From Spirochaetia bacterium (GTDB taxonomy: Bacteria > Spirochaetota > Spirochaetia > DSM-16054 > Sediminispirochaetaceae): a stretch of DNA of 64,000 nucleotides. The position numbers and the translations under genes are program-made. The DNA lies in contig JAXHMY010000002.1 in NCBI GenBank assembly GCA_034520965.1, forward strand, positions 96,001-160,000, written 5' to 3'. The notes beneath the pieces were generated by a model. It saw only the letters and a list, made by a program, of their open reading frames with translations. It searched no databases and had not been told where the DNA came from. Below are positions 1 through 10,284 of the stretch, piece after piece; positions within the stretch are counted from its first letter, which is position 1; every line of letters begins with the position of its first letter.

Positions 1-471
1 ACAAAGATAAAAAGCATTACCCAGCAGTTAAAATCGCGCTTTCCCGATTCTCCCGAATATGGCCTTTTGCAGGAGCAGGTTAAACGAAAACCAACCGCCG
101 AGATTGCCCTGGGGATGCTGAGTGTTCCAGATTCTCTTCAGACCCACGATGATGCGGTATCGGACACACTGATTCAGTCTACAGAAAAATCTTCTTCAAG
201 TGACGCTTCAGATGGGGAGGGCAAAGCCGGCGAAAATAAGCAGAATCAGAAGAGTCACGCTATTCAGACAGGCTCTTTCAGAGACGCGGAAAACGCCCAC
301 TACATGCAGCGGGAACTGGAGAAGCAAGGTTTTACCGCAATGGTGGTTCAAGCCGATGTGAACGGCTCAACTTTTTACCGGGTGTTGGTCCCGATTGCAT
401 ATGGTGAAACGGAAGAGGAGATAGTACTTCAGTTAAAAGAGAAGAGTTTTGAGGGGTATCCGGTCTACTGA
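1..471 (+). CDS. SPOR-domain protein, 5'-truncated by the window edge
   Basis: Frame is open from base 1 (TKIKSITQQLKSRFPDSPEY...). The C-terminal 'AIQTGSFRDAENA...FYRVLV' is a SPOR peptidoglycan-binding signature. TGA stop at 469-471. Confidence 0.8.
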   Translation, partial: TKIKSITQQLKSRFPDSPEYGLLQEQVKRKPTAEIALGMLSVPDSLQTHDDAVSDTLIQSTEKSSSSDASDGEGKAGENKQNQKSHAIQTGSFRDAENAHYMQRELEKQGFTAMVVQADVNGSTFYRVLVPIAYGETEEEIVLQLKEKSFEGYPVY

Positions 472-2036
472 TCTTCTATTTTCTCAACTTGTTCATACCG
501 AAGAGGCTGTTTTGAAGTAGGGACAAAACCGTTTACTCCGATTTTTCCAGGCACCAGGACGATACGCCGGATAATTTCGTTGCTCTTTTGCTCTTCAAAA
601 TAATCGAATGAATAGCACAGTCGTTCAACTACAATGCCCTGGGAGTTCAAAATCTTCAGTTCCAGCACGTCACTACCCATCGAATAGACGGAAAAGCCTC
701 CGCTATGCTGCACTCCATTGCGCTCGAGGGTAAAATAGGGTGGTTCAAAAGTAAGTTTATCGCCTACATCACTTTCATAGACACCCGTGAGCCTGGGAAG
801 ATGTGCATTTCCTTCGTCACCAAAGGAGAGGTCCGTGCTGAGAAAGGTGCTCTGCAGGGAGTCTCCAATTTTCTGGTACATCCCCGACCATGATGTATTG
901 CTGTCGCGCTGTCCATTATGGGAGTTTATGTCGTAAATCTGTAATCGGACATTGTTAAGATCTTCAATATAAGCAGATATATAGATCCGCATAAAGGGTA
1001 CAATCTCATTCTCCCCTCTGATTGCTAGGCTATTGGCCAAAAACCTTTGAGAGCTGGTCCAGGTGTACACTTCCTGTGCATTTCCGCTGTACAGGGTAAT
1101 AGTCTTCTCGATAGGGTTAAAATGAATCAGTGATCTTTGGCTGTGGGGTGTGTTCCGGCCTGTGTTTTTGGTGTATAACCACGGGCCGCTCAAAAAATCT
1201 TCAAACGTCTCACTCCCGCTCTCAAACAGCTCTTTCAGTCGGCGGTCTTCAACCTCCTGGCCGGAGACCTTTTTCTCGAGCACCTGCTCGTAGCTGCGAG
1301 AATCATTTCGCCAAATATACGTTTTTTTTATTATATCACTCAGGCGGTCGGATTCAGTGTCCGTGCTGCTGGTGACAACGGGAAAACTGCTTCCGTTAGC
1401 AAGACCGTTTTGGTATGACTGACTACGCTTTTCCTGCTGTATTTCGATGGTCCCATCCACTTCAAGTGAAAGTATCCGGTCGAAATAGAGTCCATACTCC
1501 TCGGGAGATGTGGTGCGACGAAAAATATCCATAGTCTGCAGTCCACCGTTATTGAGGCCGCTGCACACAATTTCAAGGTTGTGATCGCCGGTGGTATCGA
1601 TAACAGTAACCTGTAGACCCTTACGGCGTTGTGTGACCGTATCCGACCTCCAGGTAATAGAATATTTATCACGAATGGCATCATAATCTGCTACTAAGAG
1701 GAAGATGTTATTCTTTTCCGACTCTGTATCCTGGGCTACCAGCACCTGCTCCTCATAGCGGTCCAAGTCAAGATTTACATCTACAAGCTGCACCAATTGA
1801 TATCCCGGCGGAAGCTGAACCCGGGGAAATTGCCGATTTTCCTCCTGATAGTCATCGCCGGGGGGGCTTGTAGTGCCTGCTTCCTGGACTTGCTCGGTAT
1901 CCAAGTTGACCTTCTTTGGCTCCTGGAGATAGGGGGAATTATCCTTGGACAAATTGGGATCGCAGGCTGTCAATAAAATTACTGCAACCAATATAACTGG
2001 AAAGAGATGTATTTTCATATTTCGGTATATCTTCAT
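465..2036 (-). CDS. Pallilysin (Tp0751)-related adhesin-like lipoprotein
   Basis: Lipobox LTAC; Asp-rich loops DVNLDLDRYEEQV and DTTGDHNLEIV. Its position beside a VWA gene and cfpA matches the treponemal Tp0750/Tp0751-cfpA neighbourhood as recalled. No HExxH motif. Confidence 0.65.
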   Translation of the reverse strand: MKIYRNMKIHLFPVILVAVILLTACDPNLSKDNSPYLQEPKKVNLDTEQVQEAGTTSPPGDDYQEENRQFPRVQLPPGYQLVQLVDVNLDLDRYEEQVLVAQDTESEKNNIFLLVADYDAIRDKYSITWRSDTVTQRRKGLQVTVIDTTGDHNLEIVCSGLNNGGLQTMDIFRRTTSPEEYGLYFDRILSLEVDGTIEIQQEKRSQSYQNGLANGSSFPVVTSSTDTESDRLSDIIKKTYIWRNDSRSYEQVLEKKVSGQEVEDRRLKELFESGSETFEDFLSGPWLYTKNTGRNTPHSQRSLIHFNPIEKTITLYSGNAQEVYTWTSSQRFLANSLAIRGENEIVPFMRIYISAYIEDLNNVRLQIYDINSHNGQRDSNTSWSGMYQKIGDSLQSTFLSTDLSFGDEGNAHLPRLTGVYESDVGDKLTFEPPYFTLERNGVQHSGGFSVYSMGSDVLELKILNSQGIVVERLCYSFDYFEEQKSNEIIRRIVLVPGKIGVNGFVPTSKQPLRYEQVEKIEDQ

Positions 2037-2040
2037 ACTT

Positions 2041-3030
2041 CTATTGGACTTCCGGAAAGTAAGGTGATAACTTATCTAACACTTTTTGTTTTATTGTTTC
2101 AAGGGGCCAGATGCTCTTAAAACCCGCAGCTGTTTTGTGTCCGCCACCACCGTAGGTCTGGGCAATTTCAGCCACATTTATATTGCCCTTAGAGCGCAGT
2201 GAACATCGCAGAATCCCGGCTTCATTTTCTTTAAAAAACAACGAAACCCTTATCGTTTCACTCTTGAGGGGGACATTTATCAGTGCATCAGCCTCCTCGT
2301 AGATAGCGCCGCACTCGGCAATCATTTCTTTGGTCATGGTCTGTGCAGCCACATGCTGATCATAGAATAGTTCCAAGGTAGAAAGCACTTTTGACTGCAA
2401 ACGCAACGCTGATACTGAATTGCTCTCATATATCTTTTGATATATCTTATTCGGATTCACGCCAACCTTGCTCAAAGTGTAGGCGATCATAAAGGTACGA
2501 GGGCTTGTTTTTGGATAAATAAAGGAGCCGGTATCATACACGATACCCGTAAACAACGCCTCGGCTATCGGGAGAGTCAGTTCAATACCCAAATTTTCAA
2601 ACAGTTCGAATAGAATTTCGCAGGTTGATGAAGCGGATTCTTCAATATGATTTACCTCGACGATATCCTCTTCCGACTCATGATGATCAACGATAAAGTA
2701 GGCTTTTACTTTGGGCAAAACCAGTTCTGCTACCAATCCAATGTTGTGCAAATCGTTTGTATCAAGAATAAGCAGCACGTAATCGGCTATGTCTTCAGGA
2801 AGCTGAGATTCTTCTTTTAAAGTGACAATTGTATCGGCACAGCCTAGAAAAGAATATTTTTGTGCGATGGGATCGCTGTTATACAGTAAAACCTTTTTGC
2901 CTAAAGTTTTAAGCGCTAGAAACAAGGCACATTCGCTGCCGACTGCATCTCCATCGGGAGTTTCATGGACTGTGAGAATAAATTTTTTATTATTTTCGAG
3001 AAAATGAGTCAGACCATCGAAGCCTGCCAT
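2041..3030 (-). CDS. nrnA: DHH/DHHA1 family phosphoesterase (NrnA-like nanoRNase/pAp phosphatase or cyclic-dinucleotide phosphodiesterase)
   Basis: Motifs HETPDGDAVGS, ILD, VDHH, YDTGSF, SLRS and GGGGHKTAAG. Confidence 0.85.
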   Translation of the reverse strand: MAGFDGLTHFLENNKKFILTVHETPDGDAVGSECALFLALKTLGKKVLLYNSDPIAQKYSFLGCADTIVTLKEESQLPEDIADYVLLILDTNDLHNIGLVAELVLPKVKAYFIVDHHESEEDIVEVNHIEESASSTCEILFELFENLGIELTLPIAEALFTGIVYDTGSFIYPKTSPRTFMIAYTLSKVGVNPNKIYQKIYESNSVSALRLQSKVLSTLELFYDQHVAAQTMTKEMIAECGAIYEEADALINVPLKSETIRVSLFFKENEAGILRCSLRSKGNINVAEIAQTYGGGGHKTAAGFKSIWPLETIKQKVLDKLSPYFPEVQ

Positions 3031-3040
3031 AGCACCTCTC

Positions 3041-3664
3041 TCAGTTACGCTGGTTCCACGCGTTCGTAATTTCAGCTGCTAAACGACGCGCTTTTTCTTC
3101 AACTGTAATACCAAGAATTGAAATTTGCCAACCATTCATTGGAATTTCTTTTTTTGGCTGCAACAGATGATGCTCCAGATCGTAAGTTTTACCTGGGTAA
3201 GGACTGCCGGGAGGACCTTCGTGGTAATTATCTGAAAGCAGGAGTATATAGTGCTGCTCGGTAGGTGGTGCAGCAGAACTTTGTATGGCTTGTTCAAATG
3301 TATCCAGGGCAGAACCGATATCGGTATAGTGTCGATCCGCTTTCAAATTACGGAATTTTTCAGCAAGGGCTTCAATTGTAATATCTTGACCAATTCTCCC
3401 CTGAAATAGCTGCTGCCTGCCCCCATAGAAGCTTAGCGCATAGACAAAGTCATCAGACTGCAGTAAGTTATTACAGACAGTCTGTTCCAGGTAATGATTT
3501 ACAGAGCCAATTTCCTGCTTCATCGACAGCGATTTGTCAATTAGGAGGTATACGCTCAAATTACCTGTCCGGGTATCGGCATCGACTAATTGCACCCCCA
3601 TACCTAGAGCCATGGTAATGGAGACTATGGAGATAAAGAGTTTGAAGTACGTTTGCTTTTTCAT
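3041..3664 (-). CDS. Secreted von Willebrand factor A (VWA) domain protein, Tp0750-like
   Basis: Signal peptide MKKQTYFKLFISIVSITMALG; MIDAS DKSLS...TDIG...LSD. The start was moved from the ORF-track 3745 to ATG 3664 (GTG 3667 is also possible), downstream of an AGGA SD. Confidence 0.75.
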   Translation of the reverse strand: MKKQTYFKLFISIVSITMALGMGVQLVDADTRTGNLSVYLLIDKSLSMKQEIGSVNHYLEQTVCNNLLQSDDFVYALSFYGGRQQLFQGRIGQDITIEALAEKFRNLKADRHYTDIGSALDTFEQAIQSSAAPPTEQHYILLLSDNYHEGPPGSPYPGKTYDLEHHLLQPKKEIPMNGWQISILGITVEEKARRLAAEITNAWNQRN

Positions 3665-3802
3665 CACATTTATCCTATCATGATTATACAAGTAAAAGAA
3701 GGAGAAAAAATGTATAAAAAAAAAAACGTGCTTTACATTTTGCATAACATATTGATAATCTATTACTATAGTTAGCAGTAAGCGATTTATAAGGAGAGTA
3801 TA

Positions 3803-5893: not shown

Positions 5894-5923
5894 CAGCGCC
5901 CCCTTTTGGGGGCGTTGCTATTT
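5894..5923 (+). terminator. GC-rich hairpin after cfpA (weak terminator or mRNA-stabilising stem)
   Basis: CAGCGCCCCC-TTTT-GGGGGCGTTG followed only by CTATTT. Confidence 0.55.
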
Positions 5924-5949: not shown

Positions 5950-6946
5950 ATGGAAGTTCAAAATCAATTCGAACACCTTTCAACCAGGAGTGGTTTTAAT
6001 AAAGCCCTTGGACATTTCAGAAGCATTTCGGAGGTTATCGACCATATTGACGAAGGACGTAACCTTGCCGATTTACTGAATTACTTTTTAGATGAGAAGG
6101 AAATTCAACAGCAGCAAATTCTGCCGACTGTGTTTGCTCTTCTTCATGATAAATACGGTTATTCTTTTCACTCCCATACAATGGAAAAGAGTTTAACCGA
6201 TTTTTCTTACATTCTTAAAGAACTACCGCGATGGAAAGCTGTTGATGTAGTGCTCATTTACTTCCATCCTGATCTGGGAGCTCAAGTTATTAACCCTAAG
6301 AATGAAGACCATTTCGGCTCGCTTAACGTATTAAAAGAAAATGAACTTTTTACCATTTACTGCAGCGCCGGCAATGCCCAGGATGGCGGTAAGAAAGAAC
6401 AAAAGGCATTGCAAACACTAGTAAAAATGCTGAACGGTGCGAAGATAAAAACTCCCGACACGCTTCTAAAAGGAAAATTTAAAGCCAAAACTGTCGAGTT
6501 TGCCACTGAAGAAGAGGATGTTGAGGAAGAAGCTGAAGTTGAAGAAGAAGGAAACAGCAGAAGAGGGTGCCGCTCCAGAAAGTGCTGAGAAGGCCGAAAC
6601 ATCAGAAACCGGAAAACGCAGGATGACGCCTTTCTATTCAATTCCGGTTACTAATGAGCTCTTTCACAATGGAAATGTAGAAGCCTGGAAAAAGGTTATA
6701 CAAAGTTATCAAGCAAAGCATCCCGGTCTTGATGTATATATCTATTACGATGGAGAAAGGATTCATGATATCCATTCCCTTTTCAAGTGGGGCAAAGTCA
6801 AACACGGCAGCACCATACTGGTTGCTGTAGCTGGAGAAGATATTCAAGATGTCGCCAAGCTGCAGCGTTACTTACGCCAGGGTGCCAGCCCGCAGTTTGA
6901 GGCGTTTCTCCGGTATCCTGTAAACACCATACTGAATCTATTCTAG
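5950..6946 (+). CDS. Uncharacterised protein with an unknown N-domain, an acidic linker and a C-terminal HPr-like domain; interrupted by a +1 frameshift at about 6548-6551
   Basis: ORFs 5950-6588 and 6500-6946 join into about 331 aa if one base is removed in gaagaagaaGgaaaca; the Glu-rich linker continues across the junction. The C-terminal part contains VTNELFH...DVYIYYDGERI..HSLFK...GSTILVAVAGED. Confidence 0.7.
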
Positions 6947-6954
6947 GGGGTATT

Positions 6955-9597
6955 ATGAATAAAGCAGTACATTTCTTTAGTCGTAATAAATATGTAAAAG
7001 AAACCAAAACTTGGGAGTTGTTCGGCATTCGCGGTAAACAGGCTATGGAGTTTGCCGCGTTAGATCTTCCAATCGTACCCGGTTTTATTCTCGATTCACA
7101 AATAGCCGCACATCTTGATAATTTTAAACTGGCAGCCGAACTTCCGGAATTGATCACACTTTTTGAACAGGAAACCGGTAAAAAGTTCAACGATCCTAAA
7201 AACCCATTGCTTCTGAAGGTGGTTATAAGCCCCAATTTAGCAATTGTTCATTACCCTACGCTCCACAACTTCGGACTTACCGATGAAACCTTGCCTGGTT
7301 TTAGCGATTATGTCGGAGAAGAGTTTAGTTATCATGAAGTTTTGTTCCTAATTCACGGATTGTTCCAAGTAGAACATAAAATTGCCGAGATTCAGGAAGA
7401 TAAAAAAAATATACAACTGTATACTAACAAAATTTCAAGCCTTGAGTCGGTCCTTCACAATGAAACCTCTAGTGCAAAATTAAAGAAAACACTAGAGGAT
7501 ATGCGTTCCTATCTGCCGGACGACTTTTTCTCCAACGCGTATGCACAACTCGAATATTGTCTTCGCCGAATCAGTATACTGCTGAGTATAGACGAACTTG
7601 ACAATGAAGACGCCGCCTTGATTGTTCAGCCCATGGTATACGGAAATTACGGCAGCGATAGTGGCAGCGGTGAATATGCAACCAGAAATCCGGTAACCGG
7701 ACAGGACAAAATATTCGGCTGGTATGTTCCCGATACTTTTAATTCTGAGGAACGTAAAGGCCAGGATGTAGCCGGTTTATCACCAACATATGTAAAAGAG
7801 CTTGAGAAGACAGCCAAAACGGTAGAAGACCATTTTATGGAAATTCGATCAATCCGTTTTACCATTGAAAATAAGAAACTGTGGTTTGTCGATCAGCGTC
7901 CCCTGGTTACCAAATCTACCCAAGCCGATATACAGCTACTTCTAGATTTGCATCGGCGTAAGAAGATAACCGACAATTTCCTCATCCACGCCATCAAGCC
8001 GGATCAGCTAAATGAAATACTCCATCCGGTTATTCATCCTGAGTCTGTAAAAGAGTTCAAAGAGATTAGCGGCGGTATAGCAGGTGCCCCCGGTGCAGCT
8101 ATCGGCAGGGTCTATTTTACGACCGATTCACTTCTGGATGCATATAGAAATGCTCAGCAACAGGGCGAAGACACACAAATGATCCTCTGTATGCCGGCCA
8201 CCTTTGCCGACGATGTGAAGGCTATCGAAGTAGCCTCCGGAGTGCTCTCTTCCGAAGGTGGTTATTCCGCCCATGCCTCGGTAGTTGCACGGCAGTACGG
8301 AAAGGTGTCTCTGGTCCAAAAGGATCTTAAGGTTACCAACAAGAGTGCCAAAATTGGCCAACACACGCTGAAAGAGGGTGATCTGATTACCCTGCAGGTA
8401 CCCCATTACGGTGAGCCCCATATATATCTGGGTCAGGCTGAACTTATTGAACCGGATCCAAAGGATTCAGGTTTATTAGATTTTGTGCATTTGATAAAAA
8501 AACATGTAAAAGACTTCCATGTGCGGGTAAACGCGGATACCGGCAAAGATTCTCAGCTAGCGGTAGCTTTCGGAGCCGAAGGTATCGGCCTCTGTCGTAC
8601 CGAACATATGTTCTTTAAAGAAGAACGAATAAATGTATTCAGACAGATGATCCTCTCTGAGAATGAAACCGATCGTCGAAAGGTTCTTAATAAACTTAAA
8701 AAGATGCAGAAAGACGACTTCTACAGTATCTTCAAAGCCATGAACGGAAAAGAAGTTACCATACGCCTGCTTGATGCTCCTCTGCACGAATTCCTCCCTC
8801 ATAACAAAGCTCAAACCAAGGCTTTTGTAAACTACATGCACACCGAAGCGGGCAACACAAAAATTACGGAAAAACAGGTAAATGATATATCGGAAAGTCT
8901 GCAAGAGTTTAATCCGATGCTGGGCCATCGCGGATGCCGAATTGCGGTTTCTTATCCTGAAATTTACGAGATGCAGGTTGAGGCTGTCTTTGAAGCTGCC
9001 TTTAAGGCTCGCAAGGATGGGGTAAAGGTATATCCGGAAATAATGATCCCTCTGATCATGAACTCCGATGAGCTAAAACTTATTATCTTCGGTAAAAAAA
9101 TTGAAGGAAAGAACTACCGCGGTTTAAGCGATATTGAAGAGGAGGTCCGTAAGAAGCTGAAAGAGAAATCCGAAATGGAACACCATTTCGGTACCATGAT
9201 CGAGCTGCCCGTGGCAGCCCTGGCGGCCGGCGACATCGCCCGCTACGCGGATTTTTTCTCCTTCGGGACTAATGACCTCACTCAAACCACTATCGGCCTC
9301 TCACGGGACGATTATACCTCTTTCATGCCCGATTATACGCTGTTTGACATCATTCCAGGTAATCCCTTCAAAGAATTGGATCCTTATGTAAAAGAATTAA
9401 TCAGCACTGCAGTAAGGCGAGGGAAAATGACACGGCCCGGCTTATCAACCGGTCTTTGCGGAGAACACGGCGCAATACCGCAAAACATTCGCTTCTGCAT
9501 CGATGCCGGCTTGGACTACGTTTCATGTTCGGTATATTCGGTGCCGATTGCGTTGCTGGCGGTTGCCCAGGAAGTTGTGCCTGAAGCAAAAAAGTAG
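6955..9597 (+). CDS. ppdK: Pyruvate,phosphate dikinase homologue with a degenerate ATP-grasp domain (intact phospho-His and PEP/pyruvate domains)
   Basis: GGYSAHASVVAR (His440), GIGLCRTEHMFF, TIRLLD, NPMLGHRGCR, GTMIE, SFGTNDLTQ and GLCGEHG are retained. The N-terminal GGKG, VSVRSG and DMEF...LQTR motifs are altered. Confidence 0.85.
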   Translation: MNKAVHFFSRNKYVKETKTWELFGIRGKQAMEFAALDLPIVPGFILDSQIAAHLDNFKLAAELPELITLFEQETGKKFNDPKNPLLLKVVISPNLAIVHYPTLHNFGLTDETLPGFSDYVGEEFSYHEVLFLIHGLFQVEHKIAEIQEDKKNIQLYTNKISSLESVLHNETSSAKLKKTLEDMRSYLPDDFFSNAYAQLEYCLRRISILLSIDELDNEDAALIVQPMVYGNYGSDSGSGEYATRNPVTGQDKIFGWYVPDTFNSEERKGQDVAGLSPTYVKELEKTAKTVEDHFMEIRSIRFTIENKKLWFVDQRPLVTKSTQADIQLLLDLHRRKKITDNFLIHAIKPDQLNEILHPVIHPESVKEFKEISGGIAGAPGAAIGRVYFTTDSLLDAYRNAQQQGEDTQMILCMPATFADDVKAIEVASGVLSSEGGYSAHASVVARQYGKVSLVQKDLKVTNKSAKIGQHTLKEGDLITLQVPHYGEPHIYLGQAELIEPDPKDSGLLDFVHLIKKHVKDFHVRVNADTGKDSQLAVAFGAEGIGLCRTEHMFFKEERINVFRQMILSENETDRRKVLNKLKKMQKDDFYSIFKAMNGKEVTIRLLDAPLHEFLPHNKAQTKAFVNYMHTEAGNTKITEKQVNDISESLQEFNPMLGHRGCRIAVSYPEIYEMQVEAVFEAAFKARKDGVKVYPEIMIPLIMNSDELKLIIFGKKIEGKNYRGLSDIEEEVRKKLKEKSEMEHHFGTMIELPVAALAAGDIARYADFFSFGTNDLTQTTIGLSRDDYTSFMPDYTLFDIIPGNPFKELDPYVKELISTAVRRGKMTRPGLSTGLCGEHGAIPQNIRFCIDAGLDYVSCSVYSVPIALLAVAQEVVPEAKK

Positions 9598-9735: not shown

Positions 9736-10284
9736 TTACCACACTCCGAACTTTTTAATACCTGTAATAACCAGTTCAGCTGCCTTGCGGGCATCCGTAC
9801 GGGGAATTTGGGCCTCTTTGTTGAGTGTTTCTTGGAAGAAGAAATTTAATGTATCCAACACCTCTTCGGTTTTGTAGAAAATCAAAGAAAAATTGACTCC
9901 GGTTGGTCGAAGGATAGTAAAGGAGGAATACGAAATAATCGGTTCTTTACTTACCATTACCCGGGTTTGATTTTTCGCGCTAAAAGTATCTACTTCGGAA
10001 AAACGATGTGGAATCTTCAGTCCGCGATCACGTCGAAACGGTTCGATATACTTTTGCGGGAAGCTTGCCGGCTCGACAAGGACAAACAGTTTACTCCCGT
10101 CGGTTTCAAAGGTGAGCCCTTCATCACTTGCATAGAGGTTTTTTACATTGTCATAGGACACTACTTCATAAATAGCATAGGCCGAGGTTTCTTTAAAAAA
10201 AGAGGAAACAATATACCCTCCCTCTTCTTTGGGTAATTTGCCTTGTGAGTATGCCTGAAACAGATCGAGTGCTTTTGGTGCCAT
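9736..10284 (-). CDS. Hypothetical cytoplasmic protein (182 aa)
   Basis: Clean ORF with strong SD AAAGGAG and its own sigma70-like promoter; no recognisable motif. Confidence 0.75.
   Translation of the reverse strand: MAPKALDLFQAYSQGKLPKEEGGYIVSSFFKETSAYAIYEVVSYDNVKNLYASDEGLTFETDGSKLFVLVEPASFPQKYIEPFRRDRGLKIPHRFSEVDTFSAKNQTRVMVSKEPIISYSSFTILRPTGVNFSLIFYKTEEVLDTLNFFFQETLNKEAQIPRTDARKAAELVITGIKKFGVW

Follow-up and report, generated by a model that had tools for sequence, protein, structure and literature searches.

The analysed stretch of DNA, 64,000 nucleotides long and referred to here as the window, encodes a module of three genes in the order cfpA, a gene like T. pallidum TP_0747 and a gene annotated as ppdK by similarity. 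The C-terminal domain of the middle gene product is predicted to have the fold of the phosphocarrier HPr, with a conserved histidine (His15) at the HPr active-site position. The neighbouring protein is derived from PPDK; its ATP-site residues are replaced and its phospho-histidine and PEP-site residues are kept. We consider it rather probable that this neighbour serves as an Enzyme-I-like, PEP-driven donor of phosphate to His15, in a relay tied to the CfpA filament. The first-pass annotation of the window had proposed a hidden HPr-like phosphocarrier domain; it overlooked a frameshift in the gene and drew no link to the downstream PPDK paralogue without ATP-site residues.

Organisation of the module

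The features of the module are collected in Table 1. The terminator-like hairpin that follows cfpA may be a candidate setter of the transcript ratio within the module.

Table 1. Features of the cfpA module and their positions in the window
Feature	Position	Strand	Remarks
cfpA, cytoplasmic filament protein, 691 aa	3803..5878	+	first gene of the module; NF040882, 1198.7 bits against a cut-off of 500
Terminator-like hairpin in the gap between cfpA and the TP_0747-like gene	5894..5917	+	10-bp stem with 8 GC pairs, T-rich tail
TP_0747 orthologue, N-terminal domain	5950..6500	+	PF27497 (TP_0747_N), about 180 aa
Low-complexity linker, frameshifted (+1) in this assembly near 6545-6556	6501..6622	+	whole gene spans 997 nt; break located by aligning the DNA with the closest relatives, L077 and L078
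C-terminal HPr-fold domain (predicted), 107 aa	6623..6946	+	β1-α1-β2-β3-α2-β4-α3 and a C-terminal extension
His15, candidate phospho-acceptor	6665..6667	+	directly N-terminal to helix 1 (16-32 in the model); conservation and DSSP
PPDK-derived protein, 880 aa, TP0746 orthologue	6955..9597	+	altered ATP-grasp domain; swivel His and PEP/pyruvate domains intact
His440 of the PPDK-like protein	8272..8274	+	equivalent of the PPDK phospho-histidine (His455, C. symbiosum numbering); alignment to 1DIK; 79/79 in alignment A4

Upstream of cfpA and divergent from it, the minus strand (465-3745) encodes a pallilysin-domain protein (PF18663, E 7e-13), a DHH phosphoesterase and a vWA protein, a gene set which we take to resemble the TP0750/TP0751 neighbourhood of T. 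pallidum. A 182-aa ORF on the minus strand (9736-10284), convergent with the PPDK-like gene, has no Pfam match.

The same operon is found in T. pallidum as TP0748 (cfpA)-TP0747-TP0746 (ppdK) and in T. denticola as TDE0842-0844. In the parts of the literature available to us TP0746 is described as a glycolytic PPDK and the middle gene as hypothetical. Table 5 in the accessible text of PMC3914990 lists TDE0842-0844 as repressed together, and from gene order only TDE0843 would be the orthologue of the TP_0747-like gene. Mutants of cfpA are described, in an excerpt of PMC3398590, as filamentous cells with condensed chromosomes.

The N-terminal family PF27497 (TP_0747_N) was found on 119 of 120 homologues among the matches listed, and its presence on the N-terminal part identifies the protein of the split gene as the orthologue of T. 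pallidum TP0747. Within the window the two parts are on ORFs in different frames (5950-6588 and 6500-6946), and the gene span is of the form 3n+1. The closest relatives encode a single protein of about 330 aa, one of which (P0003) is 99% identical within the domain. In each of the 105 further genomes that have a match the frame is uninterrupted and 259-425 aa long, by which a programmed frameshift is ruled out. The tether to an N-terminal domain by a Glu-rich linker, as first described, is borne out in the relatives, where both domains are on one ORF in 108 of 109 loci (the exception is a 315-aa ORF without a detectable N-domain), but not in the window itself with its two frames. The Glu-rich character of the linker also holds locally but not generally, D and E exceeding 35% in 7 of 91 homologues.

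Compared with the window, a relative's contig has a 3-nt insertion at 6507 and a 4-nt deletion at 6550, and the frameshift falls in the purine-rich part of the linker. None of the contigs of the best-matching sequencing runs spans 6501-6552. Among 14 gene clusters of this assembly that were checked for split genes one was found, the TP_0747-like gene itself, and the frameshift is probably either misassembled sequence or a lesion confined to this genome. The best-matching runs are of salt pan origin.

Predicted fold and conserved residues of the HPr-like domain

The C-terminal domain is highly conserved: of 3219 candidate proteins, 3118 match it at E<=0.001. An AlphaFold2 model built from a 37-sequence alignment (pLDDT 92.9) has the order strand-helix-strand-strand-helix-strand-helix with a short additional helix, which is the open-faced β-sandwich of HPr (β-α-β-β-α-β-α). 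This fold had been named beforehand as a check on the HPr proposal. A search of 48,161 representatives with VIA-align places four HPrs at the top with Z of 7.7, 7.6, 7.3 and 7.1 (rmsd 2.2-2.7 Å over 77-80 residues), a Z below 8 being possibly a common arrangement. These matches span almost the entire HPr chain and are well apart from other folds, the best non-HPr being aIF2-alpha with a Z of 5.5. In Foldseek the ranks 1-25 (24 rows) are all occupied by HPr or Crh chains, the best with E 3.4e-3, probability 1.00 and TM(target) up to 0.66, and no match of the model reaches E<=0.001. The weaker model from the single sequence (pLDDT 66.6) already has HPrs at ranks 1-7.

Sequence comparisons do not recognise the domain as HPr. 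PF00381 has no match to the window ORF at E<=10, is absent from the best 25 families for 91 homologues, and finds in the genome of the window a sole match, the HPr on contig C8. The hhalign score against 30 spirochaete HPrs is 15.0, and 30 column-shuffled controls reach 16.5. No family of Pfam or NCBIfam matches the C-terminal domain. The HPr-like domain of the first-pass annotation, aligned by eye, is upheld by the predicted fold and not by the sequence. We describe it as a predicted HPr fold with the active-site His position that stands outside the HPr family; the model resembles HPr by fold only, the sequence match being not above chance. The HPr paralogues NPr and Crh likewise combine this fold with a regulatory task of their own (NPr reaches Z 5.4 in VIA-align). 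They are detectable by PF00381-like profiles, whereas the present domain is not detected by PF00381.

Searches of PDB sequences with phmmer and hmmsearch returned chance matches only, such as cytochrome b5 and WY-repeat proteins, and a cluster of the ESM Atlas labelled 'HPr domain-containing' (0.81) was set aside as it is under the lead level of 0.9. The N-domain was also compared with HPr by hhalign, giving a score of 15.1 over 28 columns (E 0.03; maximum of 30 shuffles 13.5); its score against the C-domain is inside the shuffle range.

Conservation of residues was followed in two alignments. The first, A3, was drawn from 100 loci at which the domain occurs together with the first 505 residues of the neighbouring protein. 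Filtering at 95% redundancy left 79 rows, of which the closest was replaced by the window; this alignment is conditioned on operon linkage. The second, A1, is a broader set of 91 full-length proteins. The translation on which the HPr proposal had been built is present in the window, and its histidine (codon CAC) is residue 15 from the ATG at 6623. Conservation of this histidine in orthologues, also named in advance as a check, is complete in the operon-linked set (79 of 79) and high in the broader one (87 of 91). With the register against HPr inferred from the aligned ranges, His15 lies at the N-terminus of helix 1, as in HPr. Asn16, Gly17 and Asn18 are likewise invariant in all 79, so that the H-x-R-P motif (Arg17-Pro18), which had been seen to be replaced in the window, is Gly17-Asn18 throughout. 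True HPrs need Arg17.

An SLFK motif had been read as the Ser46 motif of HPr. Its serine codon (TCC, 6776-6778) is correctly placed and is residue 52 from the same ATG, but the position is Thr in 35, Ser in 25 and Ala in 19 of the 79 orthologues of A3, and Ser in 37, Thr in 26, Ala in 25 and other residues in 3 of the 91 proteins of A1. Since roughly one orthologue in four has Ala here, the identity is coincidental; this variation rules out HprK-type regulation as a candidate, and Ser46 regulation of the domain appears unlikely.

Invariant residues make up 36 of the 107 positions in the 79 orthologues. They cluster in positions 9-23 (12 residues, in the His loop and the start of helix 1) and 53-60 (7 residues, in helix 2 and the loop), and positions 24-44 contain 2. 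Helices 1 and 2 of HPr make up its Enzyme I docking face. The final Leu-Phe of the C-terminal extension is near-invariant.

A group of 16 stand-alone homologues of 118 aa is encoded at loci without a PPDK-like gene and without cfpA. A His is present at the His15 column in none of them and one column later in two. In these metagenome loci (L187-L202), which belong to another lineage, the gene has a conserved place between purH-like and methyltransferase-like genes, according to ORFs read by eye; the loci are short and look like one lineage.

The PPDK-derived neighbour and co-occurrence of the genes

The product of the downstream gene shares with PPDK (TIGR01828; PDB 1DIK/1KBL, 5JVL) the order of its three domains, His455 and every PEP-site residue that was compared. 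It scores 654.6 bits against the TIGR01828 equivalog, the cut-off of which is 843.45, and 94.9 bits against TIGR01417 (Enzyme I), with a cut-off of 341.7. The N-domain matches PPDK_N, and no N-terminal family of Enzyme I is found among the matches listed.

Individual residues were compared with C. symbiosum PPDK (1DIK) and nine canonical spirochaete PPDKs. We take K22, R92, D321, E323, Q335 and R337 to be the nucleotide and Mg ligands of the ATP-grasp domain, and R561, R617, E745, N768/D769 and C831 to be the residues of the PEP/pyruvate site (C. symbiosum numbering). The canonical K22, R92, E323 and Q335 occur in none of the 79 PPDK-like orthologues, which have Arg at the first position (78), an aliphatic or aromatic residue at the second (79), Arg or Lys at the third (73) and Asp, Glu or Asn at the last (79). 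D321 is canonical in one orthologue and R337 in 57, whereas all nine canonical PPDKs retain every ATP-site residue. E279-D280 are also replaced. The phospho-histidine equivalent to His455 is kept in 79 of 79, and 30 of the 31 full-length rows have every PEP-site residue, the remaining row being truncated. The regulatory Thr453 of PPDK is Ser or Ala in the PPDK-like proteins; PF03618, the family of PPDK regulatory kinases, was not found in the five genomes searched and therefore offers no explanation of this change.

The altered ATP-grasp domain has near-invariant residues of its own, R26, H104, Q225 and Q314. His104 (7264-7266), present in 78 of 79 where canonical PPDK has Leu, is a candidate for an extra relay or ligand residue. 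Mean identity in the N-domain is 38% within the PPDK-like group against 67% among canonical PPDKs, while the corresponding values are 57 and 61% for the His domain and 61 and 60% for the PEP domain. Judged from these identities the N-domain is relaxed and the His and PEP domains are not. In a quick maximum-likelihood tree, from which ORFs shorter than 800 aa were excluded, 29 PPDK-like proteins form a clade apart from the nine canonical ones (SH-aLRT 100, stem 1.58).

Elsewhere in the genome of the window lie genes for canonical PPDK, Enzyme I and HPr, and canonical PPDK is also retained in at least six genomes bearing the module. Two short frames of the same genome (G000:C1:65590-66627 and G000:C2:28019-28903; 345 and 294 codons) have Enzyme-I-like PEP-binding domains and are possibly split or truncated genes. 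At four loci (L049, L052, L053 and L062) of the families f11, f25 and f33 the PPDK-like protein is about 965 aa long and has some 90 residues inserted in its N-terminal domain.

Co-occurrence was surveyed in 301 genomes of the phylum. Since related genomes are not independent, plain counts are given without a statistic. The HPr-like gene is present in 106 genomes with a single match in each, the altered PPDK in 105 at E<=3e-32 (104 in common with the HPr-like gene) and cfpA in 107 (105 in common), in contrast to canonical HPr, which is found in 297. Two genomes, G078 and G105, have the HPr-like gene with the altered PPDK under the threshold; in both a divergent PPDK-like copy adjoins the gene, and that of G105 is broken. 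The locus concerned in G105 (L065, on contig C312) has a very divergent, broken PPDK-like gene beside an intact HPr-like gene and cfpA, where either the donor may have decayed in a single lineage or the assembly may be poor. Presence of the module is patchy inside families, as in f2 (10 of 28 genomes) and f11 (2 of 8), and this mixed presence inside several families suggests repeated joint loss. In seven genomes of family f44 all three genes are retained, on different contigs.

Proposed relay and alternative explanations

PPDK and Enzyme I have a common PEP-to-His chemistry, as set out in the available portion of PMC5371819, so that loss of the ATP site together with an HPr-fold partner could yield an Enzyme-I-like donor by few changes. 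The relay that we favour builds on the observed conservation and loss of residues, gene order and co-occurrence and on the predicted fold, and would extend them to phosphotransfer, docking and coupling to CfpA. Its intact residues suggest that the TP0746-like protein would bind PEP and phosphorylate its own His440. The ATP-grasp domain, with its nucleotide and Mg ligands replaced, would serve as a docking site for the HPr-like domain and no longer in the formation of ATP, and the swivelling His domain would then pass the phosphate to His15. In the most speculative step, TP_0747_N on its flexible linker would couple the CfpA filament to the state of phosphorylation and hence to the PEP/pyruvate ratio.

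The proposed pair is similar to HPr (PF00381) and Enzyme I (TIGR01417) in the predicted fold, the His position and a partner with PEP-binding and swivel-His domains. Unlike HPr, the HPr-like domain lacks H-x-R-P and a conserved Ser46, has a C-terminal extension and is fused by a linker to a 180-aa domain. Unlike Enzyme I, the candidate donor is derived from PPDK, and its ATP-grasp-derived domain would take the place of the helical HPr-binding domain. The canonical pair is present separately in the same genome.

Several observations weigh against the relay. His15 lies inside an all-invariant block, so its conservation alone does not point to a catalytic role; 4 of the 91 homologues in the broader set lack this histidine, and Gly is at the Arg17 position. 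The fold matches have Z of 7.1-7.7, under 8, and no Foldseek match at E<=0.001. The retention of R337 in 57 of 79 and the near-invariant residues of the altered ATP-grasp domain suggest that it may bind a small phosphorylated ligand. A genome of the sample, G102, without pyruvate kinase and canonical PPDK fits the textbook view of TP0746 as making pyruvate and ATP.

The logic of such a relay, from Enzyme I to HPr, is known; its components, where they derive from and the tie to the cytoskeleton appear to be undescribed in print. In the open-access literature, outside of which most subscription papers lie, no description of the HPr fold or of the altered ATP site was found, and nothing was found under TP0747. 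If the relay is true, it is a second, independently derived PEP-to-protein phosphorelay beyond the PTS, the little-understood CfpA filament gains a candidate regulatory input, and the standing annotation of TP0746 is challenged.

At the nucleotide positions given for TP0746 variants in the accessible part of PMC10013896, the altered PPDK gene of G102 encodes Ala869 and Pro655; the protein is therefore identified with TP0746. The same part of that paper assigns to TP0746 the formation of pyruvate and ATP in T. pallidum. The only PEP-utilisers found in G102 are the altered PPDK and an Enzyme I-sized gene, and the genome encodes a bypass of GTP-PEPCK and an oxaloacetate decarboxylase beta subunit. 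This gene set cuts both ways, favouring a metabolic role of the altered PPDK and yet offering a bypass under the relay. If the relay is true, TP0746 of T. pallidum would have to be re-annotated. With neither ATP-site residues in TP0746 nor a pyruvate kinase or canonical PPDK in the genome searched, the way in which glycolysis ends in the syphilis agent would then also have to be reconsidered. The main text of the paper on the iTP251 model (PMC12097511) makes no mention of the dikinase.

A bolder claim, which we put forward tentatively and hold to be doubtful, is that Enzyme I was invented a second time in spirochaetes, with PPDK as the starting point. Proteins like TP0746 would be PEP-dependent protein histidine kinases with TP0747 as their private HPr-fold carrier, carbon flux would be reported to the CfpA cytoskeleton, and the PPDK of T. 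pallidum would make no ATP, glycolysis leaving through GTP-PEPCK and oxaloacetate decarboxylase.

HPr binds glycogen phosphorylase and Rsd. The HPr-fold domain could similarly be a non-phosphorylated adaptor or regulator that binds the PPDK-like enzyme and tethers it to the CfpA filament, with the histidine as part of a binding surface. The absence of Arg17 and Ser46 and the invariance of one third of the domain, as is typical for an interface, agree with such a role, and HPr folds do serve as allosteric partners (PDB 9s8b and 4xwj are among the fold matches). We regard it as unlikely because it leaves unexplained the retained PEP-to-His chemistry of the partner and the loss of its ATP site in all orthologues, as well as a histidine exactly at the HPr phospho-position that is lost in the stand-alone homologues.

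In another explanation the PPDK-like protein would be an enzyme of metabolism that uses a different small molecule as acceptor, in reactions such as PEP + Pi to pyruvate + PPi or PEP + ADP to ATP, and the HPr-like protein would be its subunit or intermediate carrier. A conserved cationic cleft (R26 in 78 of 79, Arg or Lys at 301 in 73, R315 in 57 and H104 in 78), the high expression of ppdK in T. pallidum recorded in the available text of PMC8525777, and the lack of pyruvate kinase and canonical PPDK in G102 are in its favour. The acidic Mg ligands, however, are lost or charge-reversed, at least six genomes with the module also keep canonical PPDK, and a housekeeping glycolytic step would not be expected to go so strictly with a gene for a filament and one for a protein of HPr fold; we hold this explanation to be improbable. 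It is hardly credible that the current annotation is correct, with an ordinary PPDK beside an unrelated hypothetical protein and an HPr likeness due to a chance ferredoxin-like fold, given a score under the TIGR01828 cut-off, the systematic loss of ATP-site residues, a separate PPDK-like clade on a long stem, and top ranks occupied by HPrs alone in both fold searches.
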